Source: an uncultured virus (IMG/VR IMGVR_UViG_3300024272_005753) (Duplodnaviria; Heunggongvirae; Uroviricota; Caudoviricetes). Taken from it: a DNA stretch of 64,000 nucleotides. Location: the IMG/VR virus record IMGVR_UViG_3300024272_005753. One strand, given 5' to 3'. Below the pieces are notes generated by a model that was not told where the DNA came from, did not search any database, and saw only the letters and a program-made list of their open reading frames with translations. Every line of letters starts with the position of its first letter. Position 1 is the stretch's first letter. This document shows positions 8,332-59,897 of the stretch, one piece after another. Made by a program: the position numbers and the translations under genes.

Positions 8332-10164
8332 TTATTCAATCGCTGCACAATCACTAACGACGGTATCGAAACTATTTTCGATTATTTCGCCATTAATTAG
8401 GGCATCAAGCTCCGCACCATCAATGCTCTCTTTTTCAATTAAGCGGTTTGCAATGCGCTCAAGGGTGGATTCATTTGCTTTTAATAGGTCGATTGTCTCT
8501 TGATATAAGGTGGTAGCCATTCTAGAAGCTTCTGAAAGAATATCTTTGTCCGTATTTTCAAATTGGTCAAGAGCTAACATACCATTATCACCCATACCAT
8601 AAGTACCGATATAGTCCTTAATTAAGTTGGTAGCCTGCTTAATATCCTGGCTTGCGCCCGTAGTAATTTCGTCATCATCCTTTAAAAGGATATATTCAGC
8701 AGCACGACCTGCGTACATAACCTTTATTAAGTTGCGCAGGTATTTCTTACTTTGGACAGCTTTTTCCTTGGGGCTTCTAAAAGTGACTCCACCTGCTCCA
8801 GATGTGGAACCAACGATTGTTACAGAAGGAACATCGTCATCAGTTAGTAGCTTTGTGGCTAAAGCATGACCAGATTCGTGATATGCAATCAGGCGATTTT
8901 CTGCAGAATCACGCTTGCTTTGCTTCTTGTTACCACGCATGACAATCTGGAAAAAGGCATCTTCTATGTGCTCGGAAGAAATAACTTTTGCTTTCTTGCT
9001 AATAGCAATAAGTGCAGATTCATTAAGAAGACCTTCCAGTTCAGCGCCACTAAATCCCATGGTTTTATCAGATAGATTGTGTAGGTCAACACCGCTATCA
9101 AGCTTTTTATTTTTCGCATGACGAGCAAGAATTTCATATCTTCCCTGTTTGTCAGGTAGAGGAACGGCTAGCTGCTTATCGAAACGACCAGGACGAATTA
9201 GAGCGCTATCCAACATGTCTAGGCGGTTCGTGGCACAAATGGTCAGAATGCCTTCCTTGCCTTTAAAACCGTCTAGCTCAGTTAGTAAAGCGTTGATAGT
9301 CTGGTCTCGTTCGCTATTCTGAGATAGACCACGCTTACCACCAATAGCATCAATTTCGTCGATAAAAACAATACAAGGAGCGATTTTGCGAGCCTGAGCG
9401 TATAGATTACGAATACGCTGAGCGCCAACACCGACATACATTTCAATAAAGTCGGAGCCGCTTGCACTTAAGAATGGTACTCCAGCACTTCCAGCAATGG
9501 CCTTGGCAATTAGAGTCTTACCAGTTCCAGGAGGGCCATATAGAACGATACCCTTAGGCATTCTAGCACCCATTTCAGTAAGTAGGGATGGATTCTTTAG
9601 ACATTCAATATCGTTTTGAACACTAGCCTTTAATTCATCGCAACCGCTTACATCGTCAAATGTTACATTTGGCTTTTCGGCAACAACTGCACCATTATTG
9701 GTCCCTCCTCGTTCTTTCTGCTGTAGCATGTCAATGTTCTTCATTGCAGAATCGGTCATTTTGCCAAGACCTGCCATAATAATGGCGGTTACAAGACCAA
9801 ACGCACCAAGCACAAGAAGCACAACAGTTAATGGAGACATACCACTGGAAGAGGTAATGACCTGTTCAACTTCGGCTAGTTCATTAAGTTCAAGAAGAGG
9901 GGTTAATTCTTCATTATATTCTAAAACCTTATAATGGCCTGCTTCAGTTTTGTAATAAGCAGTAGAACCATCAATTACAACTTTAATAACTTCTCCATTA
10001 TTTACCTGGCTCAGAAGAGTTTCATTAGTAACAGATTCGTACTTGACAAAAGGTTCTGGCGTTACTGCAAAATGGTTAAATGCAGAGTTAATAAGGAATG
10101 TCAAACAAATGGTGATAGTTAAAAAAGTAATTAGAGATACACCCGTGTTTTTATTAGTTTGCAT
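8332..10164 (-). CDS. ftsH: ATP-dependent zinc metalloprotease FtsH
   Basis: Two TM helices; Walker A GPPGTGKT; Walker B IVFIDEID; SRH motif ALIRPGRFD; HESGH zinc motif. ATG follows GAGGAGG. Confidence 0.93.
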   Translation of the reverse strand: MQTNKNTGVSLITFLTITICLTFLINSAFNHFAVTPEPFVKYESVTNETLLSQVNNGEVIKVVIDGSTAYYKTEAGHYKVLEYNEELTPLLELNELAEVEQVITSSSGMSPLTVVLLVLGAFGLVTAIIMAGLGKMTDSAMKNIDMLQQKERGGTNNGAVVAEKPNVTFDDVSGCDELKASVQNDIECLKNPSLLTEMGARMPKGIVLYGPPGTGKTLIAKAIAGSAGVPFLSASGSDFIEMYVGVGAQRIRNLYAQARKIAPCIVFIDEIDAIGGKRGLSQNSERDQTINALLTELDGFKGKEGILTICATNRLDMLDSALIRPGRFDKQLAVPLPDKQGRYEILARHAKNKKLDSGVDLHNLSDKTMGFSGAELEGLLNESALIAISKKAKVISSEHIEDAFFQIVMRGNKKQSKRDSAENRLIAYHESGHALATKLLTDDDVPSVTIVGSTSGAGGVTFRSPKEKAVQSKKYLRNLIKVMYAGRAAEYILLKDDDEITTGASQDIKQATNLIKDYIGTYGMGDNGMLALDQFENTDKDILSEASRMATTLYQETIDLLKANESTLERIANRLIEKESIDGAELDALINGEIIENSFDTVVSDCAAIE

Positions 10165-10192
10165 GTTAATCCTCCTCAAATAATCTAAATAT

Positions 10193-10221
10193 ATAATAAC
10201 ATATTTTTGATAAAATATCAA
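10193..10221 (-). promoter_or_regulatory. sigmaA-type promoter of ftsH
   Basis: Minus strand TTGATA-17-TATTAT with aaaatatgt extension. Confidence 0.7.
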
Positions 10222-10376
10222 GGTTTGTGCAAATATTTCTTTAGATATTTTATGAAAAATAAAAAGTAGTAATTCGTCGTTTTTGCATATAGACAAATTA
10301 GAAAAAATATGATATAATATAAATAGAAATAAAAAATTTCTAACAATTAAATACCGTTATAGAAAGGTGGAATTTT

Positions 10377-40976: not shown

Positions 40977-40997
40977 CGTTATTCTCCTCCTCCCATA

Positions 40998-41597
40998 CTA
41001 GAACGGGCTTTCGCCTACCTTTCTTGACACATCCTCGCCCTGCTGTGTATTTCGTTTCGCATCTCTGATTTTGCGAACGTCGTTACACCACAGAGCTAGA
41101 ACATTTCTCAGAGAACCTACCTTAGTCAGCTTTAGCTCACCGATGATAGAAATCGTATCGCCCTTCAGAACATTCTGATGCAGATAAATCGCGTCTGCAT
41201 CAAAAGCGATGAAAGGCAAGAAGAGTACGATACCTCCATCAGACTTAGACTGGAAAGGAATGTCCTTCATCTCGGGTACGTACTGAATGGACTTCTCGTA
41301 CCGTTCTCGAGAAATATTTACTGCTACAGTGGGCATTCGCAGATTGCGAAGCTCAACAGGAACGCTAGGAGTGTTATGAACTACCTCTTTAACGCCATTG
41401 ATGACCACGTTGTTCGTGGAGGTGGCACCTCGTACATTATCCTTTACCAGATAAAACGGTGTCACCAGCTTACTGCTTCCCTTGCAAAGGAAAGGGAAAT
41501 CATCGGTGGTGTTGCCTACACACTGAACGATATTTCTATCTCTATCGTCGTGTACGGCAAACAGGTAGTTCAAATCCTTTTTGTTGTTCTTCTCCAT
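40998..41597 (-). CDS. Putative OB-fold single-stranded-DNA-binding-like protein
   Basis: FIAFD...LKGDTISIIGEL resembles an SSB OB fold; C-terminal SPF; lies upstream of the primase-like gene. Confidence 0.45.
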   Translation of the reverse strand: MEKNNKKDLNYLFAVHDDRDRNIVQCVGNTTDDFPFLCKGSSKLVTPFYLVKDNVRGATSTNNVVINGVKEVVHNTPSVPVELRNLRMPTVAVNISRERYEKSIQYVPEMKDIPFQSKSDGGIVLFLPFIAFDADAIYLHQNVLKGDTISIIGELKLTKVGSLRNVLALWCNDVRKIRDAKRNTQQGEDVSRKVGESPF

Positions 41598-41773
41598 GTT
41601 TTTTCCTCCTTGGTGTATTTGTGCTTATATTATTATATAAATATTAAATCTAAATAATAAGCGCAAGCGAACAAAATAATTTACTTATATTAATGATAAC
41701 ACAAAATATCGAAAAAAGAAATGCACATAACATATAAAATTTGTTACGTGCATTTATATATTTTTGTTATGTT

Positions 41774-43474: not shown

Positions 43475-43561
43475 TATTAAGCCCTCCGTTTCTCAAATCT
43501 TCTTAAATAATATATTTTACGATATTTTTATATATTATATTAAAAAGGAGTGATTTATAAA

Positions 43562-44239
43562 ATGCGTATTTTAGGTATTGACCAGGGGATAGCCAATATG
43601 GGATATTCTATTCTCGAAGATGATAAACTTATTACATATGGTTGTATAAATACAACTAGCAAAGATTTTTTAGAAGAACGTTTTTTTATTATTTATTCTA
43701 GAATTAAAAAAATTATTGAAGAATATAAACCAGAAGTTATCTGCTGTGAAAAATTGTTTTATACTTCTCCGAAGGAAGGAAATAGAAATAAGTCTGCATC
43801 TATTATATACACAAATATGATTACTGGGGTTTTGGCTGCGTTATGTGGAGAATTCGAAATTGAATTAAGAATGTTTGTTCCAAGCAAGGTCAAAAAAGCA
43901 GTGTGTGATAATGGCAAAGCAGAAAAAGATGAAATGATTACAAAAATTAAATCTTTATACACTGTAGAATCTGACAAAACAAAATATGAACACGTTTGTG
44001 ACTCTATTGCGATTGCTTTCACTTGTTATGTTGAGAACAAAGAAAATCCAGAAATAAGAGCTGAATTTGAAAATAATAAAAACCTTAAAATTAAAAGAGT
44101 AACTGAGGATGAAATTAGAAGATTAAATAAAATCGATAAAGAACGCAAAAAGTTAAAAAGAGAGATTGAGAGAAAAAGAAAAAAGGCTGAAAAGTTAAAA
44201 ATACAACAAGAAAAAGCATTAAAACGGCGTAAAAACTAA
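43562..44239 (+). CDS. ruvC: Holliday junction resolvase RuvC with basic coiled-coil tail
   Basis: ILGIDQG, CCEKLF, PSKVKKAV...GKAEK and EHVCDSIAIA motifs. Confidence 0.88.
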   Translation: MRILGIDQGIANMGYSILEDDKLITYGCINTTSKDFLEERFFIIYSRIKKIIEEYKPEVICCEKLFYTSPKEGNRNKSASIIYTNMITGVLAALCGEFEIELRMFVPSKVKKAVCDNGKAEKDEMITKIKSLYTVESDKTKYEHVCDSIAIAFTCYVENKENPEIRAEFENNKNLKIKRVTEDEIRRLNKIDKERKKLKREIERKRKKAEKLKIQQEKALKRRKN

Positions 44240-44338
44240 AAATTTTCTATTGGTAAAAAAGACTAAAATTATATTCAAATGCATTTGTTAATATAATTAC
44301 AATAGATAATTTTTTATCTGAAAGGAGCTTTGTTTATT

Positions 44339-44830
44339 ATGACTTTACATGAAGAAAAAGTATTTCACGCATTATATTCTTGTGGAGCTATTACAAAGAA
44401 CACAATCAGAAAATTGGGTGGAGATGAAGATACCATTATTTCTTTAATGGATAAAAAGTTAATTAAAAAAGAAAAAATGGATATAGATAGTAAAAGTATC
44501 GCTGTCTATAAATTTACCAAGCAGGGGGAAAAAGCTTATATAGATAAGTTTGGTAAAAAACATTTTTATCGTTGTTCTAATCTTAGAAAAGCTGCAGAGC
44601 TTGGATATTTTTATGCTTCTTTAACTGACGAAGAAAAAAATAGTTGGAAGAGTAAGGATGAATTATCTCAGGAGATGCGTTGTTCTATGTATCCCGATTC
44701 TATTTTTAACAAGGGTGGAATCCCTTGTGGTGTGTTTGTTGTAAAAAGTGAAGATGTTGACGAGAAATTGCCAGAATATAAGCAATTTGCAAAAGAACAA
44801 AAAATTAAAATTATTTTAAAACGAATTTAA
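44339..44830 (+). CDS. Small wHTH protein, replication-relaxation-like
   Basis: VYKFTKQG wing motif and a later YPDSIF, similar to the protein at 47964. Confidence 0.4.
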   Translation: MTLHEEKVFHALYSCGAITKNTIRKLGGDEDTIISLMDKKLIKKEKMDIDSKSIAVYKFTKQGEKAYIDKFGKKHFYRCSNLRKAAELGYFYASLTDEEKNSWKSKDELSQEMRCSMYPDSIFNKGGIPCGVFVVKSEDVDEKLPEYKQFAKEQKIKIILKRI

Positions 44831-44843
44831 GGAGGGGAATAAT

Positions 44844-45086
44844 ATGAAAGATACAGGTGTTGTACGCAAGATTGACCCACTTGGCAGATTAGTTATTCCC
44901 AAAGAGTTGAGAAAGGCTTTAGGGCTTGGGACTAACGAACCTGTTCAAATTTACGTAGAAGGAAATCGTATCTGTGTAGAAAAGTACAATAAGGCTTGTC
45001 TTATTTGTGGGAGCACAAAAGATGTATTTCCCATTAAGGATAAAAATATTTGTGCTGAGTGCGCAGAATTGATTAAGGAAATCTAA
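44844..45086 (+). CDS. abrB: AbrB family transition-state regulator
   Basis: MKDTGVVRKIDPLGRLVIPKELR plus C-terminal CLICG...ICAEC. Confidence 0.9.
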   Translation: MKDTGVVRKIDPLGRLVIPKELRKALGLGTNEPVQIYVEGNRICVEKYNKACLICGSTKDVFPIKDKNICAECAELIKEI

Positions 45087-45087
45087 T

Positions 45088-45798
45088 ATGTTTGTATTGC
45101 TGCGAGATTATTTAAGGAAATTAGAAGGAAAAACAAAAAATGAAAAGAAAGAAGAAATAGTTTCCGAAAAAGAATCATCTATTAAAGATGATATGGAGGA
45201 TAATCTTGTAGATGAATCCGATAAACAAGAGAAAGAGAAAGAACAAGAGCAGGAACAAGTTAGAAAAAAGACCCGAATAGAAATTATAAAAGAACGGAAA
45301 AGAGAAGAAAAATTAAAGAAGAAAGAGAAAAAAAGACGTAAAAAAAAGCCAATTACGGTTTATTCTGTTCTTTTGTTATTAATATTTATTGTCGTTTTTG
45401 TATCTAGAATTTGTTTATTAACATCGTCTGAAACTTACATATTAAATGGACAAATAATTTATAGTTCGAAACTTAATAAATACGTTATTAACTACGATAT
45501 AGAAGAGTTGTGGAATGATAATAAGCTGGCTCTCAATGAGAAAGTTTGCATTCCTCAAGATTATACAAAAGATAGGGCAGCAATTAAAGATTATCCTGGA
45601 GAGTGTGTTCCTGGAGTAATTGTAGAAGCAAGCAATAAGGTTAAAATCAAATATGATTTACCAAAATATATGACGTATGATGAATTAAAATTATTTGTTA
45701 TTAATGGGTCTTTTGGCCAGACGATAAATCGAGTAAAAATTGAAATAAAAAAATGGGGAGATTTATATCAGATAACAAAAATCTATCCCATGAATTAA
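45088..45798 (+). CDS. Single-pass membrane protein
   Basis: Charged N-terminus, then a TM helix after a basic run. Confidence 0.6.
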   Translation: MFVLLRDYLRKLEGKTKNEKKEEIVSEKESSIKDDMEDNLVDESDKQEKEKEQEQEQVRKKTRIEIIKERKREEKLKKKEKKRRKKKPITVYSVLLLLIFIVVFVSRICLLTSSETYILNGQIIYSSKLNKYVINYDIEELWNDNKLALNEKVCIPQDYTKDRAAIKDYPGECVPGVIVEASNKVKIKYDLPKYMTYDELKLFVINGSFGQTINRVKIEIKKWGDLYQITKIYPMN

Positions 45799-45836
45799 AA
45801 AAGACGAATCTGAAAGATTCGTCTTTTTTTGTTGTA

Positions 45837-46766
45837 TTAAAATTCCAAACTTCCTAGTGCTGTAATCATTGTAGGGATAGCGATAACGGCCATGTTACAA
45901 AGTAGCATAGGCATCTGAATCATTGTCGCCAATGTTTTTCTACCGCTAATTTTAATTAGGAACTGGTCCTTTTGCATTTGTGCAACTTTATCTGCTTGAG
46001 CAGCGAATGCGTCTTTTGCATCGCCACCTTGTTCCATTGTTAATTTAACAAGAGATACGAATTCTCTAACTTCGAACATATTTACCGTATTAGACATAAC
46101 GTCAAGAGCAGCAGTAGTTCCTTTTGTATTACAGTCAAGAATAAATTGATTAATTACAGGTTTCCAGTCGTCAGAAACATATCTAACACTATTTTCCATG
46201 GCTCTTACCAAGTCCATACCTGCAACAAGGTAACCAGAAATAATTCTTACTAAGTCTGGGAAATACTTAAATAAAGCTTCGTTTTTACCTTTAACTTCTG
46301 CTTTAAACATGTAGTCTAACAAGAAAGAACATCCCGCAAAAACAACAGCTCCTGCAGCAATCATATATCCACCCATGGTAGCTAATAATAGTCCTAATAT
46401 CACACCAATAATTCTTAGAATTAAATTAGTTGCGATATAAGATTCTGCTGTAAAAGTATCATCCCAAGCAATAAATTTAATATCTTTATCTAATTGTTCT
46501 ACATTTTCAATTCTTAAACTAGGTAATAGTTTTTGTAACTTAGGGAATAAGTCACTTCTAATACTTGCAGTTAAATCATTAATAGTGTCAACTGTTGCGG
46601 CTGAGTCTTTTTTAACGCCTTTACTGAATTGTTTTAGACGACTCTTAGTTACTGAGCTGTCTAATGTAGTACCAATTAAATCAATAAATGTTTTTGCTGC
46701 GGACAAAATCAGAATTAACATACCAGCAATAAAGATAATATTGGCAACTGTCATATTTATTTCCAT
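45837..46766 (-). CDS. tadC: Tad pilus / type II secretion F-family protein, TadC-like
   Basis: FPDLVRIISGYLVAGMDL, EQGGD and TM pattern; follows the tadB-like gene. Confidence 0.7.
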   Translation of the reverse strand: MEINMTVANIIFIAGMLILILSAAKTFIDLIGTTLDSSVTKSRLKQFSKGVKKDSAATVDTINDLTASIRSDLFPKLQKLLPSLRIENVEQLDKDIKFIAWDDTFTAESYIATNLILRIIGVILGLLLATMGGYMIAAGAVVFAGCSFLLDYMFKAEVKGKNEALFKYFPDLVRIISGYLVAGMDLVRAMENSVRYVSDDWKPVINQFILDCNTKGTTAALDVMSNTVNMFEVREFVSLVKLTMEQGGDAKDAFAAQADKVAQMQKDQFLIKISGRKTLATMIQMPMLLCNMAVIAIPTMITALGSLEF

Positions 46767-46782
46767 ATTGTTAATTCCTCCT

Positions 46783-47727
46783 TTACTTTAGTGGGGCACC
46801 GATTTTATTATTAATAAACCAAATGACGCCCATAATAATTCCAAACAACGCAGCAACCATTATTTGGCCAGTTAGTTGGTTTAATAAGAAATCAGAATAA
46901 CCATCCATTGATATAAATCCAAAACAAGCGAATAGAGGAACAGTTAAAACAAGGATATAAGAGTCCTTAACGGGTTCTGAAATTTCTCTTTTTAGCATCT
47001 GTCTAAGCTGTCTATCTTCTTCGTACTGTAAATATGCTTGGCCCAATAGATTTTCTCTAGCTTCTTGGGTACCAATTGCAGAAGAAATTTTATAGAAGTC
47101 TGAAAAACGTTCCAAAAATTTGTTGTCGCATCTTTCTGCCAAATTATCCAATGCTTTTTCAACAGTTACGTTAGCTTCCATTTCTGCACAGGTGAGTTTT
47201 AATTCGGTATACATTGGTTCCATACCTTTGAACTCATTCTTTGTCATATTCATTGCTTTAGAAAAGTCTTTGGTGCTAAGATATCTTTTAATTACCATCT
47301 GCATCATTGGGCCTATTTGTTTTTCAAGTTCTCCAACTCTTTTATTTCTTAAAAATGTAATTACTTGGGACGGTATCATAGGTCCAACAAGAATCATTTC
47401 TACTGCCAAAAAAGGATTTCCAATTACAACAAATGTAAATATACACAATACAATGGCGCAAATGACCTTTAGTAAAAACAATTCATGATATTTTAGATTT
47501 AAGCCTGCCTGACGGCACATCTTTTCAACGGCATTTCTTTTTGAATATTTTGTTTTTTCTGCAGCAGTCTTTTCTAATTTTTTCATAAAAGACTCGGACT
47601 CGTTGCCCATGTCTCTAGCTTGGCTTTTTCTAAAATTTTCAGAAAAGTCTGTCTTGCTAAAAGTATTAAAAATAGTTAAGGCTATGAATATTAACACATA
47701 TATCATAGGACTTATTGGTTGACTCAT
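46783..47727 (-). CDS. tadB: Tad pilus / type II secretion F-family protein, TadB-like
   Basis: RQAGL, EKALDNLAER and GQIM with a T2SS-F hydrophobicity pattern. Confidence 0.7.
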   Translation of the reverse strand: MSQPISPMIYVLIFIALTIFNTFSKTDFSENFRKSQARDMGNESESFMKKLEKTAAEKTKYSKRNAVEKMCRQAGLNLKYHELFLLKVICAIVLCIFTFVVIGNPFLAVEMILVGPMIPSQVITFLRNKRVGELEKQIGPMMQMVIKRYLSTKDFSKAMNMTKNEFKGMEPMYTELKLTCAEMEANVTVEKALDNLAERCDNKFLERFSDFYKISSAIGTQEARENLLGQAYLQYEEDRQLRQMLKREISEPVKDSYILVLTVPLFACFGFISMDGYSDFLLNQLTGQIMVAALFGIIMGVIWFINNKIGAPLK

Positions 47728-47963
47728 TCAATACTCCTCCTCGCTATCAAAACTTAGTATTTATCTCTATTATATTGGAAAGAGAAATAAAATAATGAAT
47801 TATATCGGCTTAGAACAAAAATATAGTAAAGAAAATACTCTTATATATTCTACAAAACATTTTCATTTTTCATAATATAAAAAAGCCTTGTTAAATGGTT
47901 TTTATGTGATGATTAGGGATAAAGAACTATATAATATAATTAGCAAAGAAAGGAGTTGAAATC

Positions 47964-49235
47964 GTGGCTAAAAGAGTTGAAAAAGTAATGAATGAATATA
48001 GCGATAGAGATTTTCAAGCATTGTTGTCTATATATAATTTTAGATGTTTGTCCATGAATCAATTGTTTGATTTACATTATAGATTTTCTGGGAAAAAGGA
48101 AGTGACTTCTGAGTATTTAAGAAAAAAGATTATTAAAATGAAGAAGGATAATCTAATTGAAGAATCTAGGCTTGTAAGTAAGAAGGCTCCTGTTGTCTAT
48201 TTTTTAACAAATGACGGAATCCAAGCCGTTCGCATGTATTTTAATTTGTCTAATAATATATATGATACTAAGAAGAGAATTCATGAAAGAGGATATTATA
48301 CTTATTCTGAAATAAAAGTGGCAGATAGATTTATTCCACATCAATATAACTTGAATCAATTTGCTTTGACTTCTATTGATTACTTAAAAAGTAAAGATAT
48401 TGGATACTCATATGTTGATGAAAGACATGTTTCTCAAACATATGGAATTCGACCAGATGGGATTTTATCGACTTTGGGGTTAGATATATTTTTAGAAATG
48501 GATATGGGAACCGAATCATTGTCTCAGTTGAAAGAAAAATGGAATCATTATAGGAGTTATTTAGGGTCTCAAAGCTATATAGATAATGGGAAAAAGATTA
48601 TTATATTTTTCATTTGTTATAATAAAGGCAATATTACGGAAAGAATTAAAGTCATAAAAAATTCATTAAATGAGCATTTTATAGATTGTTTAAAAGAAGT
48701 TGAAGTGTATGTGGGATTACCAGAAAAATTAATGTCGGTATTAAAAAACATAATTGTTCCTTTTTACACGACTGGCAAAAGTGAAATGTATGAAGAATTA
48801 ATTACCAATATTAAACGACATGAATTTAAAGTTGCTTCTGGTATTCAAATGGCAAAATATTTAGACAATACAAATTATACATTTTATATTAAAAATGAAG
48901 ATGGGAAAGATTTTTTAGTTCATGAATTTTTTGGAGAACCTATCGGTGCTATGAACAGAGTCGTTTTCCATGAAAAAATTAATAATTTATTTGAGAAAAA
49001 ATTTAATAAATCTTTGCCATTACTTTTGATTGGAACAAACGAAGATACAATAATTGAAAATATAGATTTATTTGTTGTTTCTGATATCCCAAATGTATAT
49101 TTTTCTACATTAAAAAGGTTGAATACTATGCCTTTTAATGAAGCATTATTTAAAATAATGCCAGATGGTAGTATTTATTCATTCACTGAAGACTTTCAAA
49201 ATATAAAACAAACGGAGAAAATAAATAAAAAATAA
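47964..49235 (+). CDS. Replication-relaxation family protein
   Basis: RDFQAL...QL...VYFLTNDG wHTH; PHQ; IRPDG; FLEMDMGTE...KWNHY nuclease motifs. Confidence 0.8.
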   Translation: MAKRVEKVMNEYSDRDFQALLSIYNFRCLSMNQLFDLHYRFSGKKEVTSEYLRKKIIKMKKDNLIEESRLVSKKAPVVYFLTNDGIQAVRMYFNLSNNIYDTKKRIHERGYYTYSEIKVADRFIPHQYNLNQFALTSIDYLKSKDIGYSYVDERHVSQTYGIRPDGILSTLGLDIFLEMDMGTESLSQLKEKWNHYRSYLGSQSYIDNGKKIIIFFICYNKGNITERIKVIKNSLNEHFIDCLKEVEVYVGLPEKLMSVLKNIIVPFYTTGKSEMYEELITNIKRHEFKVASGIQMAKYLDNTNYTFYIKNEDGKDFLVHEFFGEPIGAMNRVVFHEKINNLFEKKFNKSLPLLLIGTNEDTIIENIDLFVVSDIPNVYFSTLKRLNTMPFNEALFKIMPDGSIYSFTEDFQNIKQTEKINKK

Positions 49236-49305
49236 TTTATATTGTCGGGGTTCATCCCGACAATATTTTTTGTTACCAAAAAATCTTTGTAATGCTTGAA
49301 ATTGC

Positions 49306-49334
49306 TTGACTTTGTATTAATAATGTGATATTTT
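49306..49334 (+). promoter_or_regulatory. sigmaA-type promoter of secY-secE
   Basis: TTGACT-17-TATTTT with TG extension, followed by a leader hairpin (ACATTCTTGCT...AGCGGGAATGT). Confidence 0.55.
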
Positions 49335-49417
49335 GTATATGTAACAGTAATGACATTCTTGCTATTATAAGCGGGAATGTTTATTTATTAAGTTAGTGTT
49401 TAGAGAGGAGTTTATTT

Positions 49418-50761
49418 ATGTTTAGTAGTACTAATGTAAAAATGTTAAACAAAAACAAATATAAGACAACCGAAAAAACATTGGCTCAAAAGATATTTTT
49501 TACGTCAATGATTTTAGTAATTCTTCAATTTTTATCTCAAATTCCTATTTGGGGGATAAACCGAGATTTAATTAGTTTTTGGTTAAATAGCGACATGAGT
49601 GGTATTTTTGGAATATTTAATATTTTTTCTGGTATGTCGTTTGAGAATCTTTCATTCTTTGCTTTAGGTATTGCGCCATATATTAGCGCATCAATTATTT
49701 TGCAATTATTGAGAGTTGCAATTACTCCTTTGGACCAGATGTGTAAAGACGCACAAAATGAAAAGAAGTTTGTAGAAAAAATTACTTATGGGTTTGCAAT
49801 TATTATTGGTATTTTACAAGTGATTCCTTTGGTGATGAATTTTTCGACTAGCGGTTTATTGGTTAATAACAGTTTTTCTTGTAAGCTTTTAGTTGGTGCT
49901 TCCATCTTATTCGGTAGTGCGATAATGATTGCTTTAGGCAAGATAATTGAAAATAAGGGGATTGGTAATGGTATTTCATTAATATTGTTAATGAATATCT
50001 TGTCATCTATGCGTGGTGACTTCATAAATATTTATAATACTTTTATTTACAATAACGAAATTACAACTATTATTTTAACTGTTTTGATTGCTGTACTGGT
50101 CCTGACATTTTCTTTTGTTTCCGTTATTTATCTGTGTGAAGGGAAGAAAGATATAAAGGTTACTTTTTCTGGTAAAATGCATGGCGGGAAAATGGTTAAA
50201 TCTGCAGATAATATTATTCCCCTAAAGGTTAATATGTCTGGTGTTATGCCAGTTATTTTCGCATCTACATTAATTCAATTGATTCCTATGATTACTGCCA
50301 TACTAAATGTTTCTGAAACTAGTATCTTGAACGAAATTTCAAAATATTTTAATCAAATATATTGGTTTGATTTTTCGAATATCCAATATACTTTTGGTAT
50401 CTTAATTTATTTTGTATTGATTGTCTTTTTTTCTTATTTTTATAATATGATATCTTTCAGTTCAAAAGATATCGCTGACAATCTTAACAAGCAAGGTGGA
50501 ACAATTGCAGGTATTAGGCCAGGTAAATCAACTAAAGAGTATTTAGATGGGCAAATTAAGTATATGGTATTATTAGGTTCGTTAATGTTAATTATTATTT
50601 CTATTATTCCAATGATTATTGGTGGAGTAATCAACATTAACTTAGCTTTTGGGGGAACATCTATTATTATTGTAGTAAGCGTATTAATTGAAACTTATAA
50701 AACAATTAAATTGGAAAAACAGAGAGAAACTGTTGCTCCTAGAAGATATAGCGTATTTTAA
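49418..50761 (+). CDS. secY: Preprotein translocase subunit SecY (divergent, stand-alone)
   Basis: FALGIAPYISASIILQLL, GIGNGISL, IPLKVNMSGVMPVIFA, GIRPGKST and FGGTSIIIVV motifs. Confidence 0.93.
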   Translation: MFSSTNVKMLNKNKYKTTEKTLAQKIFFTSMILVILQFLSQIPIWGINRDLISFWLNSDMSGIFGIFNIFSGMSFENLSFFALGIAPYISASIILQLLRVAITPLDQMCKDAQNEKKFVEKITYGFAIIIGILQVIPLVMNFSTSGLLVNNSFSCKLLVGASILFGSAIMIALGKIIENKGIGNGISLILLMNILSSMRGDFINIYNTFIYNNEITTIILTVLIAVLVLTFSFVSVIYLCEGKKDIKVTFSGKMHGGKMVKSADNIIPLKVNMSGVMPVIFASTLIQLIPMITAILNVSETSILNEISKYFNQIYWFDFSNIQYTFGILIYFVLIVFFSYFYNMISFSSKDIADNLNKQGGTIAGIRPGKSTKEYLDGQIKYMVLLGSLMLIIISIIPMIIGGVININLAFGGTSIIIVVSVLIETYKTIKLEKQRETVAPRRYSVF

Positions 50762-50774
50762 GGGGGAAAACAAT

Positions 50775-50936
50775 ATGTTTAAGAAATTAAAAAATGAAAT
50801 TAACAGAATTAAATGGCCTGACAAATGGTTACTTGCTGAAGATTTAAAAGTTGTCTGTATTGGAGTGATTGGTTTAATACTTGCAATATCTATTATTGAT
50901 TGGCTTTCTAAGTTAACGCTTGGATTAATATTTTAA
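50775..50936 (+). CDS. secE: Preprotein translocase subunit SecE
   Basis: 53 aa; EINRIKWP (ExxxVxWP-like) followed by one TM helix ending IID; 13 nt downstream of secY. Confidence 0.8.
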   Translation: MFKKLKNEINRIKWPDKWLLAEDLKVVCIGVIGLILAISIIDWLSKLTLGLIF

Positions 50937-51118
50937 AACTAGTGTAATGGCTCGAGATTATTTCTCGAGCCATTATTATTTGTTTTTCTTTAGACATTTT
51001 GTCAAACAATTCTTCTATTTAATTATATCTCATATAACATTATAATGAAATTATGAAATAATTTTTTATATGATTTTTTTACAAAAAATAATAAATAACA
51101 AGGAGATGCAAAAATAAT

Positions 51119-51940
51119 ATGAAAAAGATTCTTTCGACTGTTTTATGCTTGGTTATGATATTAAGTCTAGGCGTTACTGCGTTTGCAGAAACAAATGAAT
51201 TTGTTCTTACTTATAGCAATGAAGCCAGCTATGAGATTTCTATACCTGAAAGTGGGAACATAGATGTTACTAATGGTAAAGGTACTATTACCATTGGAGT
51301 AACAGAAACTAATTTAGCAGATGGAACTGTTGTTAGTGTTACTGCTACTTCTGCCAATTATACTGATGATTCTTGGTATTTAGTTAATACTAAAGATAGT
51401 AGTGACAAGATGGCTTATACTGTTGGTACTACTGATGGTGGTAGTGATGTAGCAAGTGGTGATGAAGTTTTATCTGCTGATAGTGCTACCTCTACTACTC
51501 TTTATGTAACACTAAGTGATACAAGTAAGATAGGTACTTTTACAGATACTATTACTTTCACTAGTGAGATTGAAGCGGCTATGGCCACGGTTACGGTGAC
51601 ACATGATGCATACGATACAGAATACTGGTGGACAGACTGTCATGCCACTCTGCCAGACAGTAGCTACGTTTCCTTGAATAGCGCAGGGATATACGAACTA
51701 CCGATTGGAACAGTTATTACATGTGGGGGTGGTCATTCTTACTACAATCATAAAGATGCAAGTCTTAGTGTTTACTTAAATGGGGAAGTAGTGGAGCGAA
51801 CATCTGGTGATGGTGACGGTAGATATTGTTCCTATGAATATACGCTCAACGACAATATTACTCTTGACCCAAAAACAGATGATAGTAGATTCTCTTACGA
51901 TGGTTCTATCTATGGTGCTATTCATATCACTGAAGAATAA
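51119..51940 (+). CDS. Secreted beta-rich protein, two-module
   Basis: Signal peptide ending AFA; Thr/Ser-rich N-terminal module ending FTDTITFTS; Tyr/Asp/Gly-rich C-terminal module. Confidence 0.7.
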   Translation: MKKILSTVLCLVMILSLGVTAFAETNEFVLTYSNEASYEISIPESGNIDVTNGKGTITIGVTETNLADGTVVSVTATSANYTDDSWYLVNTKDSSDKMAYTVGTTDGGSDVASGDEVLSADSATSTTLYVTLSDTSKIGTFTDTITFTSEIEAAMATVTVTHDAYDTEYWWTDCHATLPDSSYVSLNSAGIYELPIGTVITCGGGHSYYNHKDASLSVYLNGEVVERTSGDGDGRYCSYEYTLNDNITLDPKTDDSRFSYDGSIYGAIHITEE

Positions 51941-51974
51941 AAGAGAATTTAAAATGACTTATCGAATATTAGCG

Positions 51975-52010
51975 GCAGAAACCCCTTGCTTTAGCCATGG
52001 GGTCGCTGAC
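51975..52010 (+). mobile_element. IS200/IS605-like right-end hairpin remnant
   Basis: GAAACCCCTTGCTTTAGCCATGGGGTCGCTGAC resembles the imperfect subterminal hairpin of IS200/IS605 ends; no transposase nearby. Confidence 0.45.
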
Positions 52011-52184
52011 ATCAACCCAGACTTCGGTCTGGGTTTTGTTTTATCTAAATCTCTATATATAAAATGGATTCGATTACGAGTCTTTTTTCTTTTTGGTTGT
52101 TTTATTTCTATTCTTTTCTTATATCTAAAACAATTTATAAATAAAATAATAATATCCAAATAAAAAATAAGAGAGGTTAAAAAC

Positions 52185-52775
52185 ATGAAAGGGGTATTAA
52201 AGTACAAGGTAGAAGACTGTTTCGGTGGTCACTATCATCGCTTTCCTGCAGGCACAGAAGTTTTCTTTGGCTTAGACGAAATGGAAAATATTTCGTTTGA
52301 TGGGAAGATTGAAGTCTTTATGGATGGTTTTTATGCTTGTATTCCTGTTCGGTACATTACCGACTTAACGGTAACAAGTGATGGGGACCAGCAGCTGCTC
52401 AATGCTCTTGCTGAAAAAATTAAAGAGCATAAGAAAATCTGTTGTATCGAAGCGCCTTCCGAAGAGTATAATCACTTCTTCTTGGATGGTGAAGAAAACA
52501 TCGATTTTTGCAACAATTATTTTTCTGACGAGCTGTTCGAATTTGGGTTGGGACTTTCGAGTAGGAGTTTTACCTATCCTTTAGCGATGAGAAATCTTTT
52601 TTGTGATATTGCTGTAAAGGTTGCTCTGGAAGCTGGGCTTGAGGTATATTCTATCGGAAATTACAATCTGGATAGTTGGTATGTTCTTAAGTACGTTGAT
52701 GGTAAGTGGTTGAATGTTGAAGAGGCTGACGACTATTACTCTGACCTTAACGAACTCAAAAAGAAAATTATGTAA
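52185..52775 (+). CDS. Hypothetical protein
   Basis: ORF with RBS GAGAGG. Confidence 0.6.
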   Translation: MKGVLKYKVEDCFGGHYHRFPAGTEVFFGLDEMENISFDGKIEVFMDGFYACIPVRYITDLTVTSDGDQQLLNALAEKIKEHKKICCIEAPSEEYNHFFLDGEENIDFCNNYFSDELFEFGLGLSSRSFTYPLAMRNLFCDIAVKVALEAGLEVYSIGNYNLDSWYVLKYVDGKWLNVEEADDYYSDLNELKKKIM

Positions 52776-52904
52776 AAACATGGGGGGAGAAAACGAGTTC
52801 CTACTACTTTGTTCGGGGTGGTTAGTACATATTAAGCAAAAAAAGAGAGACGGAAAGGTCTCTCTTTTTTAATAAAAAAGTCTCATCAAAAGATGAGACA
52901 AAAT

Positions 52905-53438
52905 TTAGTTGAATTTCAAATAATTATTTAAATCAAGTAGAGGTTGGAATACATAACAAGTTTCCAATTGAGTATCTACTTCTGCATCTAAAAAATAGCA
53001 ATATTCTGGTAGATTATAGTCTGTTGGTTCCAGTTTGAATAGATAATCAAACAATGTTATTTTTTGTGCCTGGACAAGAATTATTTCATTTTTATTTGTT
53101 GGGTTTTTGCCAACCAAATCTTTTAACTGAAATTCTAAATCTTTTGCATGTCTTTTAAAAGCTTCAATATTTCTTGCCGATTCATAATCAGAAGCATCAA
53201 TAAATACTGCAGACTCTTTGGCACATAACTCGTCTAGTTCTGCAAAAGATGTCTTTAGATTATTCACATCTAATTCATAAGATGCTATTAGTTTATCAAT
53301 AGTTTCTATTTTTTCTTCTTGTTTGTATTCTTTTAAAATTGCTTTCATTTCGTTTGAAATTGTGGTTAAATATCCTATACTATGTTCTTGGAAATATCTA
53401 ATCACTTCATTTTTGAGTACTGTTTTGCATTTCAGCAT
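52905..53438 (-). CDS. Hypothetical coiled-coil protein
   Basis: ORF with RBS AAGGGG and upstream TGtTATAAT. Confidence 0.55.
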   Translation of the reverse strand: MLKCKTVLKNEVIRYFQEHSIGYLTTISNEMKAILKEYKQEEKIETIDKLIASYELDVNNLKTSFAELDELCAKESAVFIDASDYESARNIEAFKRHAKDLEFQLKDLVGKNPTNKNEIILVQAQKITLFDYLFKLEPTDYNLPEYCYFLDAEVDTQLETCYVFQPLLDLNNYLKFN

Positions 53439-53572
53439 AAAAAAGGCCCCTTTCTTCTTATTGGAATATGTTCCAAACAAAATTATCTCTTTTTATTATA
53501 ACATCTTACAAATTATAATATTATATTTTTTTGCGCACAAAAAAACACGAGGATTCCCTCGTGTTTTGTATT

Positions 53573-54061
53573 TTAAAAAATAAATACCTTCACAGGCTGC
53601 TTTCTGTCATATCTGGCGTTAGTGTGGATTTCTGCGAAAAGCTTCTTGTCGCCGTACTTTTCGATGGCTTTGGCATATGTCATATTTCTCATTTCACCAT
53701 CAATATATACCAGAACTGGCTTATCATAGTTTTCAATGCCGAACAGTCGTCTATGGTTAGCGGCGTAGTCTGCAAACATGATGCTTTGTTCATAGACGTA
53801 TCTTGCAACATCAATTGTTAGATTATCAATGAGTGCAATAGTGGATGTTTCACCATCTTCGTCCCAATCTTCGAAGGATTCAGAACCTAGGTAGGCGGCA
53901 ATGATGCCTTCGTTGTACTTAGGAGGAAGTGTTACTTCCAGCATAGGAAGGTTAATGGTGCGGATTTCGCAGTTTTCAACGGAATCTGCTTCTTCGAATA
54001 AAAAAGCGTGAGGATAGCGTAGAAAATTGTCAAATTTGGCCTTGATGGTATAATTTTTCAT
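53573..54061 (-). CDS. Hypothetical protein
   Basis: ORF with RBS AGAGGT, followed by the terminator at 53540-53567. Confidence 0.6.
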   Translation of the reverse strand: MKNYTIKAKFDNFLRYPHAFLFEEADSVENCEIRTINLPMLEVTLPPKYNEGIIAAYLGSESFEDWDEDGETSTIALIDNLTIDVARYVYEQSIMFADYAANHRRLFGIENYDKPVLVYIDGEMRNMTYAKAIEKYGDKKLFAEIHTNARYDRKQPVKVFIF

Positions 54062-54249
54062 ATATTCTTACCTCTTTCTTTTGTTTGTCCTGTTTTTTCG
54101 AATCCTTTTTGCTTTTATATCTTATATTATATTCGTTTTGATAATTTTTTATTGTTAGTTATGACTTTTTTGTATCGATTCTAAAAAGACTAGATTTTTG
54201 AACAGAAATGTAATATAATTAGGATATACTTATAGAAGGAGATATAAAT

Positions 54250-54453
54250 ATGCTATCTTTTTTGATATTAACTGCGCCCATTTGGATAATTTGTTTATCT
54301 GCTGCGGTTTTTTATAAATTATTTTCAAAAAATACGAGACCAGAAATTAGATATTATTTTTCTGAAGAAGTATTTGAATCTGAATTAAAGACAAACTATA
54401 ATTCTGGTTTCGAAAAGATGAAAGAAATAGAATATTCCATTGAGTTACCTTAA
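54250..54453 (+). CDS. Small membrane protein
   Basis: RBS AAGGAG; N-terminal TM helix. Confidence 0.5.
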   Translation: MLSFLILTAPIWIICLSAAVFYKLFSKNTRPEIRYYFSEEVFESELKTNYNSGFEKMKEIEYSIELP

Positions 54454-54470
54454 CGGCGGAAGGAGAAAAA

Positions 54471-55385
54471 ATGAAAACTGAAAAAAATATATTAATTGCA
54501 TTCATCCTCAACTTGGGATTTGCGATTTTTGAATTATTTGGGGGGCTTTTTACTAATAGCGTTGCTATTATGTCTGATGCTATTCACGATATTGGAGACG
54601 CTCTTTCAATTGGGATATCTTATTTTTTAGAAAAGAAGAGTAAGAAACAAGCAGACAGTAAATATACTTATGGATATACTAGATACTCTGTTCTTGGAGC
54701 AAGTATAACATCTGCTATTCTATTAATTGGTTCTGTTTTGGTTATTTATCGAGCAATTATTCGTTTGATTAATCCCGAAATAGTCAATTATAACGGGATG
54801 ATTGTATTTGCAATTGTTGGAGTTATTATTAATTCTTTGGCCGCTTATTTTACTCACGATGGAGATTCTATAAATCAAAAAGCAGTTAATCTTCATATGT
54901 TAGAAGATGTCCTTGGATGGGTAATTGTTTTAATTGGTTCTATAGTCATGAAATTTACAGATGTTGTTTATATTGACTCTATTTTGTCTATTGGCGTTGC
55001 TTTCTTTATTTTAATCAATTCTGTAAAAATGTTATTGTCTGCAGTAGATTTATTTTTGGAAAAAACACCTCAGGGGATTTCGGTTGATGAATTGAAAAAT
55101 CATCTCTTAGAAATTGAAGGTATCATTTCTATTCATGACCTACATATTTGGAGTTTGGATGGGATAAATCATTGTGCAACACTACATGTTGTAGTTGACG
55201 ACCATTTTAAAAGTACTAAAAAGAAGGTAAGAGAAGAGTTGCATGAACATGGTATAGCTCATGTGACAATTGAAATGGAAACAGAAAATGAACCATGCGG
55301 TGAAGAGTCTGCTCATTTATTAAAGACTCCTTCCCATTCGTGCTGCGGGCATTCTCATCATGGGCATCATCACCATCATCATTAA
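54471..55385 (+). CDS. Cation diffusion facilitator (CzcD/ZitB-like) metal efflux transporter
   Basis: SDAIHD, YTYGY, LHMLED and HDLHIWS motifs; His-rich tail. Confidence 0.92.
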   Translation: MKTEKNILIAFILNLGFAIFELFGGLFTNSVAIMSDAIHDIGDALSIGISYFLEKKSKKQADSKYTYGYTRYSVLGASITSAILLIGSVLVIYRAIIRLINPEIVNYNGMIVFAIVGVIINSLAAYFTHDGDSINQKAVNLHMLEDVLGWVIVLIGSIVMKFTDVVYIDSILSIGVAFFILINSVKMLLSAVDLFLEKTPQGISVDELKNHLLEIEGIISIHDLHIWSLDGINHCATLHVVVDDHFKSTKKKVREELHEHGIAHVTIEMETENEPCGEESAHLLKTPSHSCCGHSHHGHHHHHH

Positions 55386-55399
55386 AGGAGTGATATAAT

Positions 55400-55621
55400 T
55401 TGTTACTCATTGTGTTTTATATATTGACGTTGTTTATTGTTTTCGGAGTTACATATTGGCTCAGAAAACATTTGTTAGATGTATTTGTGAAAAATAATAA
55501 TGAAAATAAAAGTTTAGAAATTATTGATTGTGTTCTTCTTCGAGATTCTGGATGTGAAATTGATAAAATAATTAGAATGCTAGAAGAAGAGGAAGTAACA
55601 ATCAATACAATTAATTTATGA
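55400..55621 (+). CDS. Small membrane protein
   Basis: RBS AAGGAG; N-terminal TM helix. Confidence 0.45.
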   Translation: MLLIVFYILTLFIVFGVTYWLRKHLLDVFVKNNNENKSLEIIDCVLLRDSGCEIDKIIRMLEEEEVTINTINL

Positions 55622-57082
55622 TTGGAGTTTTGGGGAATGTTGAACTTTTTTAAAAACAACAAGATTCCACTATTTGTTACGCTTACATTTTTAATCATCT
55701 GTACGTCTCTTTTTATGCTTGACCCAGATGTTTATTGGCATATTAAATCGGGAGAATGGATTATTCAAAATGGGATTCCACAAAAAGATACTTTTTCTTA
55801 TTGGGGAGGTAATTTTTTAGCTCACGAATGGTTATTTGATATATTGTTATATGTCTTATATTCTGTAGGTGGATTTGTTGGAATGCAAGGATTTTTCTTT
55901 GGTATTTTAGGGGTTACTTTATTCCTTTGTATGAATATAGCAAATAAAAAAGACAACCCTAATTTTCTTGTTTATTTCATTCCTTTTATCTTGTTATTAA
56001 GATACGTAGGGTTAATTTCTGCCAGACCACACATGATATCTTTGCTTTTTATTGTGATTGAACTATACATATTGCATAATAAGAAGTATAATTTGTTGTG
56101 GTTATTACCAATATTTACACTATTTATTGCGAATGTTCATGGTGGTTCAGTATTGATTTTGGCATTAATACTTGTTGTATATTTGGTTGATTATATTTTT
56201 AACAATTTGGGGGATTTAGATAAAAAATTTATCATCAAAAATATCGTAACAGTTCTTATTATGGTAGTTACTATGGTAATTACCCCTTATGGAGCCGAGT
56301 GTGCTCTTTATGGCACTAATTTACCTGATTTAGTCATGGACAATGTTACTGAGTGGTTGCCATTAATTCAGGGTTCTTTTGATATTCCTATGTTATTCTT
56401 GGCGCTTGTTCCTTTGGCTTGTATGGCTTATACAAAAGATGCGAAACTCATTGATATACTTATGCTTTGTATGGGTTTTATGATGTGTATTATTTGGTGT
56501 CGTATGATTACAATATATGTTTGTATATATTTAATTTATGGGTCTGGTTATATTCATAGGACCTTTGTAGATATATTTAACAAATTAAAATTAAACTTTG
56601 GGGTTAGATTAAAAAAGGCAAATCAACAAATTGTTGATACTACAATTTTTGTAGTATTAGCAGTTTTATTGGCATTTAATATTTCTGATATTTCGTTTGA
56701 AAAGTCTGAGGAGAAAGCGAGCGTTTCTCCTACAATAATTAAAAATTACATTGAAGAAAACAATATTGATGTTACTAATAACATCATGTTGAATGATTAT
56801 AATTTTGGGGGATATTTTATTTTTAATGGATACAAAGTATTTATGGATGGGCGAAATGACGTTTATCTAGATACTTTTGGAAGCCCAAATGTTCTTCCTG
56901 ATTATTTTGATATTGATAACGTTGAAAAAAATATTGATGAATTATTAGACAAATATGATGTCAAATATTTTGCAATTTATACAGATTCTGACCTCCATAG
57001 TTATCTGGTAGACAATGGGATTGCAAAAGAATTGGTTTTTGATGAAAAATATGTGTTCTTAGAAAAAATAAATAAATCCTAG
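55622..57082 (+). CDS. Polytopic membrane protein, GT-C glycosyltransferase-like
   Basis: DPDVYWHI..G, HEWL, ARP, ANVHGG and FMDGRNDVY motifs; many TM helices (true start may be 55637). Confidence 0.55.
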   Translation: MEFWGMLNFFKNNKIPLFVTLTFLIICTSLFMLDPDVYWHIKSGEWIIQNGIPQKDTFSYWGGNFLAHEWLFDILLYVLYSVGGFVGMQGFFFGILGVTLFLCMNIANKKDNPNFLVYFIPFILLLRYVGLISARPHMISLLFIVIELYILHNKKYNLLWLLPIFTLFIANVHGGSVLILALILVVYLVDYIFNNLGDLDKKFIIKNIVTVLIMVVTMVITPYGAECALYGTNLPDLVMDNVTEWLPLIQGSFDIPMLFLALVPLACMAYTKDAKLIDILMLCMGFMMCIIWCRMITIYVCIYLIYGSGYIHRTFVDIFNKLKLNFGVRLKKANQQIVDTTIFVVLAVLLAFNISDISFEKSEEKASVSPTIIKNYIEENNIDVTNNIMLNDYNFGGYFIFNGYKVFMDGRNDVYLDTFGSPNVLPDYFDIDNVEKNIDELLDKYDVKYFAIYTDSDLHSYLVDNGIAKELVFDEKYVFLEKINKS

Positions 57083-57111
57083 ATTATATTTTAAAAAGGA
57101 GCTGTTTTAAA

Positions 57112-58944: not shown

Positions 58945-59006
58945 TAATTAATCTCTACCTGGAAACCAGGTAGAGATTCTTTTTTGTTTTTTAAAATAAA
59001 AAACAA

Positions 59007-59235
59007 ATATAAATTATTGTTTTCTGCTGGTTAACAGCTCGCCGTGCACGCAGGGGTCCCCTGCAAACTAATTGCTGCTACAATAATAAATATATTTATA
59101 GTATTTAGTTTTCTTGTAGCAGCTCAGCATCTGAAGACTTCCTGGGTCCCTGTTGTGTGTATATTATTAGAATATTTTTTATATAAAAAATATTCTTTTT
59201 TGGACGGCTTGGCTGCGGCTGGTTTTCGTGCTGCG
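59007..59235. repeat. Intergenic block of palindromes and motifs shared with 60238-60405
   Basis: GCAGGGG-T-CCCCTGC; GCTGCTACAA...TTGTAGCAGC; CTGGGTCCCTG; ATATAAATTATTGTTTT. Confidence 0.6.
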
Positions 59236-59324
59236 TTTATAATTGTTTTCTTCTTGAATGCTTGTCAGAGTGTATTTTTTATGTTATAATATATAAAAAT
59301 AGCAAATATCCCGAGGTGAAAATT

Positions 59325-59852: not shown

Positions 59853-59897
59853 GTTAAAAGCAACCAAATTTTTGGTTGCTTTTGTTTATTTTCACTA

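Follow-up and report, generated by a model that had tools for sequence, protein, structure and literature searches.

An intact secY-secE operon on a megaplasmid-like element from animal faeces

Introduction

What kind of DNA carries the core of a protein translocon away from its usual genomic place, where did the genes come from and what would they serve? These questions are raised by a 64,000-nt stretch filed as IMG/VR record IMGVR_UViG_3300024272_005753 (referred to as the window), in which secY is followed by secE. The translocon needs SecYE as its essential core but not SecG, and its C4/C5 loops are bound by SecA and the ribosome. The housekeeping secY gene is situated at the end of the spc ribosomal-protein operon, in the order rplO-secY-adk, and secE is located next to nusG; the pair in the window shows neither arrangement. 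With moderate confidence, it is interpreted here as a complete and self-contained operon that belongs to the conserved backbone of a megaplasmid-like element. This element is low in GC, was recovered from animal faeces and is assigned to a Clostridia-type gut Firmicute; the operon would add translocon capacity or provide a translocon matched to the proteins of the element.

The secY-secE Operon and Its Signals

The two genes form a real, intact operon outside the spc and nusG contexts (Table 1). The secY stop codon ends at position 50761, which leaves a gap of 13 nt to secE, whose start is the ATG at 50775 within a listed, TTG-initiated open reading frame (ORF; 50688..50936). A sequence-only reading of the locus had described a full-length SecY followed 13 nt later by a SecE of 53 amino acids, placed in neither canonical context. 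The former is borne out by the ORFs and by the Pfam and NCBIfam cut-offs given below, the latter by the neighbours, a replication-relaxation gene on one side and the gene of a signal-peptide-like protein on the other.

The same reading had assigned a promoter, a leader hairpin and a terminator to the pair, and these fared differently. The terminator stands: at -23.5 kcal/mol (z -7.07), it was equalled in stability by none of 200 shuffles. A second terminator (-16.2 kcal/mol, z -4.81, 0/200 shuffles equally stable) closes the upstream replication-relaxation gene, so that the secYE unit is insulated on both sides. The promoter-like site is positioned between this upstream terminator and the secY ribosome-binding site. 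Such sites are not enriched around secYE (18 found vs. 14.8 +/- 4.3 in shuffles) and a promoter of its own is consequently only plausible. The signal of the leader hairpin is moderate: the 85-nt secY leader reaches -18.2 kcal/mol with a z-score of -2.47, and 5 of 200 shuffles were as good. The hairpin and the subsequent UUAUUUAUU (49352-49390) scored as terminator-like in the terminator scan and matched no Rfam family; this element could be a transcription attenuator setting translocon dosage, or an mRNA stabiliser.

Table 1. Features of the secY-secE locus and of related genes in the window.
Feature	Position	Strand	Details
Replication-relaxation family gene (Replic_Relax)	47964..49235	+	Pfam 1.1e-18; plasmid backbone marker adjoining secY
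Intrinsic terminator closing the upstream replication-relaxation gene	49239..49266	+	12 pairs, T-run
Sigma-A/sigma-70-type promoter-like site	49306..49334	+	TTGACT-17-TATTTT, upstream TG, 9/12 consensus matches
Leader hairpin in the secY 5' untranslated region	49352..49381	+	12 pairs, then U-rich tract
secY ribosome-binding site AGAGAGGAG	49402-49410	+	7 nt 5' of secY ATG
secY	49418..50761	+	447 amino acids, full length; ORF list, Pfam, NCBIfam, PDB matches, AlphaFold model
secE ribosome-binding site GGGGGA	50762-50767	+	inside the 13-nt secY-secE gap
secE	50775..50936	+	53 amino acids, single C-terminal transmembrane segment; Pfam, NCBIfam, comparison with element SecEs
Intrinsic terminator of the secY-secE transcript	50944..50976	+	14 pairs, 6 GC
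273-amino-acid protein, signal-peptide-like N-terminus (…GVTAFA/ETNEF)	51119..51940	+	directly 3' of the operon; no significant Pfam family
Two TadB/TadC-like (type II secretion system F, T2SS-F, family) membrane protein genes	45837..47727	-	weak T2SSF Pfam; divergent from the replication-relaxation gene
FtsH (AAA and M41 protease, 2 transmembrane segments)	8332..10296	-	Pfam; TIGR01241 498.7 bits, below cut-off 600

Identity and Conservation of SecY and SecE

The window SecY matches Pfam PF00344 over the entire profile (1-306 of 306; 1.5e-74, 251.6 bits, cut-off 32.2) and passes the NCBIfam equivalog TIGR00967 (304.5 vs. cut-off 253.6). Its alignment with solved bacterial SecYs covers the full length (best PDB match 1.7e-63), and its AlphaFold model, with a predicted template modelling score of 0.66, shows the ten-helix SecY/Sec61 fold. 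All top Foldseek matches of the model are SecY, the best being T. thermophilus SecY (5aww_Y, TM 0.80/0.84), and a search of the ESM Atlas returned generic SecY clusters only. The small ORF had been read as SecE, and it indeed passes the cut-offs of PF00584 (1.3e-07, 31.8 bits vs. 22.7) and of the equivalog TIGR00964 (29.6 vs. 27.55). Its transmembrane segment occupies residues 26-44. PDB matches to SecE are weak (E 0.098-0.91), with an R-x-x-WP motif in common. The protein is 27-29% identical to the SecE ORFs 3' of secY in three distant elements (L082, L094 and L103), in which the adjacency of secY and secE is retained.

Functional positions of SecY were read from an alignment to the E. coli SecY encoded at locus L114. 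In the E. coli protein, the pore ring is formed by I82, I86, I187, I191, I278 and I408, the plug is marked by F67 and the C5 loop by R357. The pore-ring-aligned positions of the window SecY are I85, I89, I186, L190, I280 and I418, and they are aliphatic in 30 of 30 SecYs of its clade, all of which are full length and which span 44-93% identity. The plug residue corresponds to F70 (28 F and 2 L in the clade), and the C5-loop arginine, part of the loop that contacts SecA and the ribosome, corresponds to R367 and is kept in all 30 members. The plug and pore-ring residues are thus conserved throughout the clade, the two leucines at F70 excepted. Near-relative reads from four sequencing runs, which gave short contigs of low depth, revealed six substitutions within secY, four synonymous and two not according to a hand translation, too few for a selection test.

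A Megaplasmid-Like Carrier

The findings are best explained if the window belongs to a megaplasmid from a family with the replication-relaxation gene and Tad-like genes. Full-length homologues of the replication-relaxation protein (28.5-35.5% identity, at least 91% cover) are found in 11 PLSDB records, all of them Firmicutes megaplasmids of 127-722 kb. These include P. polymyxa pSC2 (510 kb), C. perfringens pJFP838A (404 kb), B. thuringiensis BTB_502p (502 kb) and C. difficile BI1 (301 kb), which share with the window both the full-length homologue and neighbouring T2SS-F/TadB-C genes. A Tad/Flp-like cluster adjoins the replication-relaxation gene in all four megaplasmids viewed, as it does in the window, and the protein encoded at 46783-47727 is 39.6% identical over 283 amino acids (2.5e-70) to a T2SS-F family protein of pJFP838A. 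A mobile, plasmid-like carrier is supported by homology and synteny alike. At the nucleotide level, a megablast of positions 40000-60000 against PLSDB gave no match. No SecY match was present in any of 10 tested megaplasmids of this family (the 11th, NZ_CP139199.1, lay outside the test). The secYE operon is a peculiarity of the window's uncultured gut lineage. Identical pieces of window DNA recur in animal faeces metagenomes of other studies (runs X7 and X8).

The best SecY match in PLSDB (H15) was rejected as an element copy, being a ribosomal-operon region filed as a plasmid. The 252-kb Agathobacter rectalis 'plasmid' NZ_CP143948.1 (L001) carries complete S10-spc-alpha operons with secY, adk, infA and rpoA, and is either a fragment of a chromosome or a secondary replicon that is essential. 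TnpB-type genes were observed in both pSC2, whose tnpB lies directly 5' of its replication-relaxation gene, and the window, where a 280-amino-acid ORF (21277-22119), whose C-terminal domain weakly matches Cas12f/TnpB and which also has a PHROG transposase match, is probably a TnpB remnant.

Conserved Linkage with the Replication-Relaxation Gene

Relatives of the window SecY are graded from 93% to about 44% identity, after which canonical Lachnospiraceae SecYs follow at about 38%, and the replication-relaxation protein has a similarly graded family of relatives. Both families are represented on five shared contigs of 137,636, 20,266, 6,575, 5,251 and 464,774 bp, recognised by the identical size of the longest contig in the two family lists. 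The pairs on these contigs range from close relatives to distant ones (SecY 45%, replication-relaxation protein 32%). As some of the shared contigs measure only 5-6.5 kb, secY and the replication-relaxation gene must be near neighbours there. The GC contents at third codon positions (GC3) of secY and secE, 0.25 and 0.20, match those of the backbone genes. Together with the linkage kept in relatives, this composition suggests that the operon is an old component of the backbone and not recent cargo.

Phylogeny of SecY and Other Element-Borne Loci

The ancestry of SecY was read from an IQ-TREE phylogeny of 49 SecYs, rooted on E. coli, with support given as bootstrap/Shimodaira-Hasegawa approximate likelihood-ratio test. 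The window SecY belongs to a clade of 16 rows (98/98), itself part of a superclade that comprises 24 element-borne SecYs (98/97). The sister group of this superclade consists of 11 canonical Lachnospiraceae-type SecYs (96/91), and both together are supported at 97/93. The window SecY, described from the sequence as divergent, is hence located outside canonical chromosomal SecY and in a clade of element-borne SecYs. Mean pairwise identity within the clade is 0.53, the same as among the sampled canonical SecYs across Clostridia and other phyla. A search of GTDB contigs with the clade alignment returned, among the matches listed (at least 600), only canonical SecYs at no more than 40% identity.

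Two further groups of loci occupy other parts of the tree. Loci with the gene order secY-secG-secE and a GC content of 43-48% nest in Oscillospirales (100/98 with Allofournierella), and the SecY of L083, a 192.5-kb element with terminal repeats and a SecA, is sister to Peptostreptococcus (100/100). These three separate positions, the superclade, the Oscillospirales loci and L083, lead to the conclusion that element-borne SecY arose at least three times.

No rplO or adk neighbours were found in the superclade contexts seen (window, L082, L094, L096-L100, L086/L087, L102 and L103), with L001 and L101 serving as canonical-context contrasts. Instead, the gene order varies around a constant secY. 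L082 (IMG/VR record G001; 290 kb, GC 28%) shows gyrA-secY-secE with FtsH 3 kb downstream, L094 combines secY-secE with a partial FtsH, the metagenome locus L103 reads secY-secE-secA, and in the IMG/VR loci L096-L100 secY is followed by a small ORF and then secA. Among the giant elements as a whole, the IMG/VR records G002 (222 kb) and G007 (192.5 kb, terminal repeats) each encode SecY and a full SecA. Though filed as viral, the record G001 looks plasmid-like, with an AAA_10 ATPase and no match in the two capsid and terminase families tried. L091, a 12.4-kb IMG/VR contig with a GC content of 56%, carries a SecY fragment close to canonical Lachnospiraceae SecY directly 5' of a phage major capsid protein E gene, and may represent a prophage junction or a chimeric contig.

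A wider reading of this tree is offered tentatively and with some doubt: the window would be a single branch tip in an old and extensive clade of mobile translocons, carried on several unrelated giant gut elements with SecE and sometimes SecA or FtsH. Giant elements of gut Firmicutes would then repeatedly have acquired and kept membrane-protein biogenesis machinery, with independent captures of Lachnospirales-, Oscillospirales- and Peptostreptococcales-type genes. If this were true, such elements would be partly autonomous from the envelope machinery of their hosts.

Export Partners and Candidate Substrates

Exported proteins in the window were flagged by a crude hydropathy and lipobox script, not by SignalP. 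Four lipobox proteins (starts at 3988, 31357, 41774 and 57112) and six further proteins with an N-terminal signal or anchor (starts at 1014, 6431, 13894, 20053, 25573 and 51119) were identified, in addition to multipass proteins, so that the earlier count of more than ten is roughly right. The 273-amino-acid protein encoded directly downstream of the operon may be considered a candidate substrate of SecYE. In the region 3988-7549, a DUF4358 lipoprotein, an MBOAT acyltransferase and a DHHW/AlgX-like protein are encoded in a row, an arrangement read as a surface-polymer O-acylation module of the DltB/AlgI type.

A Pfam scan of 57 main and 14 small or intergenic ORFs of the window detected no SecA, SecG, YidC, sortase or trigger factor. 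Since relatives carry a SecA of their own and none is seen here, use of the host SecA is an assumption.

E. coli FtsH is known to degrade uncomplexed SecY, and the FtsH encoded in the window had been proposed as a quality-control partner of the translocon. Co-carriage speaks for this part of the earlier reading: the L082 FtsH, 42% identical to that of the window, is encoded 3 kb from its secYE, and L094 has the partial gene. Against it, the window FtsH gene lies 39 kb from secYE on the opposite strand, and FtsH was found in only one of five whole IMG/VR records with an element SecY. The window FtsH belongs to a graded family of relatives of 93-54% identity, and its role as a SecY quality-control partner is speculative.

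In the proposed mechanism, the operon would be transcribed from its own sigma-A-type promoter, and SecY and SecE would assemble into a SecYE core channel in the membrane of a host that presumably keeps its own SecY. The channel is probably functional and would work with host SecA, signal recognition particle (SRP)/FtsY, YidC and signal peptidases. It would thereby add translocon capacity, or supply a translocon matched to the element's own proteins. Possible cargo includes the secreted proteins and lipoproteins of the element, its surface-modifying enzymes, and components of the Tad-like pilus or of transfer. The dedicated or hybrid character proposed for the channel from the sequence is conjectural.

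Comparison with Known Systems

The closest described parallel is provided by the 'Hodor' megaplasmids of the human gut, conjugative elements of about 357 kb and 44.6-47.1% GC (Yuan et al., bioRxiv Feb 2026, PMC12934698). According to this preprint, they encode a sec operon of the order hyp-SecY-SecG-SecE, with genes for giant surface proteins, sortase B and trigger factor close by. Co-transcription of the sec genes is reported from a metatranscriptome, and the backbone comprises Rep_3, ParABM, a VirB4 type IV secretion system (T4SS) and a MOBH-like relaxase (PMC12934698). The arrangement in the window can consequently not be regarded as unprecedented, as had been supposed, given that SecY-SecG-SecE operons on gut megaplasmids are already described there. 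A literature search, whose coverage left out most subscription journals, found among the ranked matches read no natural plasmid- or phage-borne SecY besides this preprint.

In both systems, a giant plasmid or plasmid-like element of gut Bacillota encodes SecY and SecE together in a small operon, and for both an export of the plasmid's own surface proteins is proposed. They differ in that scans of the window revealed no SecG, trigger factor or sortase and no giant surface proteins are in view, in GC content (44.6-47.1% vs. 33.7% in the window), in source (human gut vs. animal faeces) and in backbone, with Rep_3/ParABM/VirB4/MOBH on one side and, in the 64 kb seen, replication-relaxation and Tad-like genes on the other. 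Their SecY ancestry differs as well: IMG/VR loci with the Hodor gene order group with Oscillospirales (100/98), whereas the superclade of the window (98/97) is sister to Lachnospiraceae. These loci were compared by gene order and GC content, the published Hodor SecYs themselves not being in the tree. The separate tree positions of the Hodor-order loci and the window SecY suggest an independent origin.

Accessory Sec systems of Gram-positive bacteria, composed of SecA2, SecY2 and Asp1-5, are associated with glycosyltransferases and a serine-rich adhesin (e.g. PMC5076819). They resemble the window operon in providing a second SecY-type channel for particular cargo, together with small SecE/SecG-like partners. 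The window SecY scores far below the cut-offs of the SecY2 models (NF009082, 105.8 vs. 353; TIGR02920, 101.3 vs. 249.6) and above that of the canonical model, and no secA2, asp or glycosyltransferase (gtf) genes are present among the 57 main and 14 small ORFs. The view that the pair does not represent an accessory SecY2 system is accordingly upheld.

With housekeeping SecYEG, the operon shares the family models, the fold, the pore ring, the plug, the C5 arginine and the SecE R-x-x-WP motif. It differs in its lack of an spc or secE-nusG context, in the absence of a visible SecG and in its location on a mobile element, and the mean identity between the window clade and canonical Clostridia SecY is only about 36%.

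Weighing the Alternatives

Several observations weigh against an operon that serves a megaplasmid. The putative promoter at 49306-49334 is a consensus match only, the AlphaFold model of SecY is of moderate confidence (predicted local distance difference test 69.9), and the SecA that follows secE or secY in relatives (L103, L096-L100) is not visible in the window. Pfam scans of the window recognised no partition or T4SS genes, housekeeping-like genes (sigma-70, RadA, RuvC, RecD2, SpoVG and FtsH) are present on the element, and the plasmid and second-copy readings rest on comparison within 64 kb and not on a closed replicon. In addition, one subclade of SecY relatives (P0026-P0028, 50-53% identity) reaches a 652-kb contig that could be a chromosome.

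A different purpose of a functional plasmid SecYE, namely host independence or protection, is considered unlikely. Here, the operon would permit export in ill-matched hosts or supply a channel insensitive to SecY-targeting factors. Repeated acquisition, at least three times if the window superclade, the Hodor-order loci in Oscillospirales and L083 are counted, fits this explanation, and elements that add their own SecA look as if driven towards autonomy. On the contigs shared by both families, SecY also diverges faster among close relatives than the replication-relaxation protein does (68-79% vs. 87-88% identity), a difference that fits added capacity equally. However, no inhibitor or toxin context was seen, and only three positions (Q37, R99 and K244) set the clade apart from canonical SecY at the thresholds used, so few that the residue comparison offers nothing pointing to an altered pore or plug.

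It is considerably less probable that the window is a piece of the chromosome of an uncultured, fast-evolving Firmicute with secY-secE as its only translocon. The housekeeping-like genes listed above, to which S1 can be added, would be at home there, SecY passes the canonical equivalog cut-off, and two contigs that carry clade SecYs measure 465 and 652 kb. Yet no ribosomal protein, tRNA or Rfam RNA was found in the 64 kb, secY is not beside rplO or adk nor secE beside nusG, the adjoining replication-relaxation/Tad module is that of known megaplasmids, and the FtsH and the sigma factor score under their equivalog cut-offs. Of the two large contigs, the one of 464,774 bp also bears a replication-relaxation gene. 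The other, of 652,170 bp, encodes the clade SecY P0027 (53%) and the FtsH P0275 (51%, in the canonical identity range), and no replication-relaxation relative was matched to it; P0026-P0028 are nested between plasmid-linked members in the SecY tree. This contig may be a very large element, an integrated copy or a chromosome.

Highly improbable, too, is the view that the window belongs to a jumbo phage equipped with a translocon for taking over its host. Such an assignment is suggested by distant SecY relatives, found on contigs of 178-290 kb that IMG/VR files as 'viral' and for which CheckV gives high completeness, and by phage-like genes of DNA metabolism in the window (a VWA/AAA_5 pair, primase, RuvC and NT5C). 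Nevertheless, none of 37 window proteins matched a PHROG structural, packaging or lysis family, and the replication-relaxation protein had no match in 50,697 phage records. An alignment of that protein and the single window SecY likewise found no relative in IMG/VR. In searches of five IMG/VR element records each (G001-G005 in one, G001-G003, G006 and G007 in two others), no HK97 capsid match and no Terminase_6N match over the cut-off were obtained, and a conjugation-type AAA_10 ATPase exceeded the cut-off in two records. Judged from these few families, the tested records look plasmid-like.

The faintest chance is given to a hitch-hiking or decaying copy without function, a disfavoured reading for which the faster divergence of SecY relative to its backbone neighbour and the lack of any RNA data set among the 12 sequencing runs listed can be cited, and against which stand two intact ORFs with ribosome-binding sites and a terminator, 30 full-length clade members with conserved pore-ring, plug and C5 residues, a secYE composition fully adapted to the element, and the secY-secE adjacency kept as far away as L082, L094 and L103.

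Other Genes of the Window

The low-GC element (33.7%) contains genes of deviating composition. The sigma-70 family gene (18291-19238) has a GC3 of 0.535, and the VWA/CobT-like, AAA_5 and DUF3854-primase genes (35487-40976) have values of 0.53, 0.53 and 0.43, compared to 0.20-0.29 in the backbone; these genes look like islands of recent import. Two regulators of Firmicutes type were also identified, a SpoVG homologue (26894-27184, 1.8e-19) and a small AbrB/MazE-type protein (44844-45083, 7.9e-10).

Implications

An intact secY-secE operon in the backbone of a megaplasmid-like element is not the first of its kind, as plasmid-borne SecYE was described in 2026. What is new is the independent origin, the different plasmid family and the wide clade of mobile SecYs. 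The Hodor-type phenomenon is accordingly not a one-off: it has a separate origin here, and both the plasmid family and the setting, the guts of animals, are different.

Few single-copy genes of cells are as essential and as strongly conserved as those of SecY and SecE, which are employed as phylogenetic markers since they are assumed to be immobile. The locus indicates that large mobile elements can carry core envelope-biogenesis machinery, and marker-gene binning and taxonomy can be misled by element copies of SecYE. As to the plasmids themselves, the export and surface display of their proteins, and hence their transfer and the colonisation of hosts, may depend only in part on the translocon of the host.

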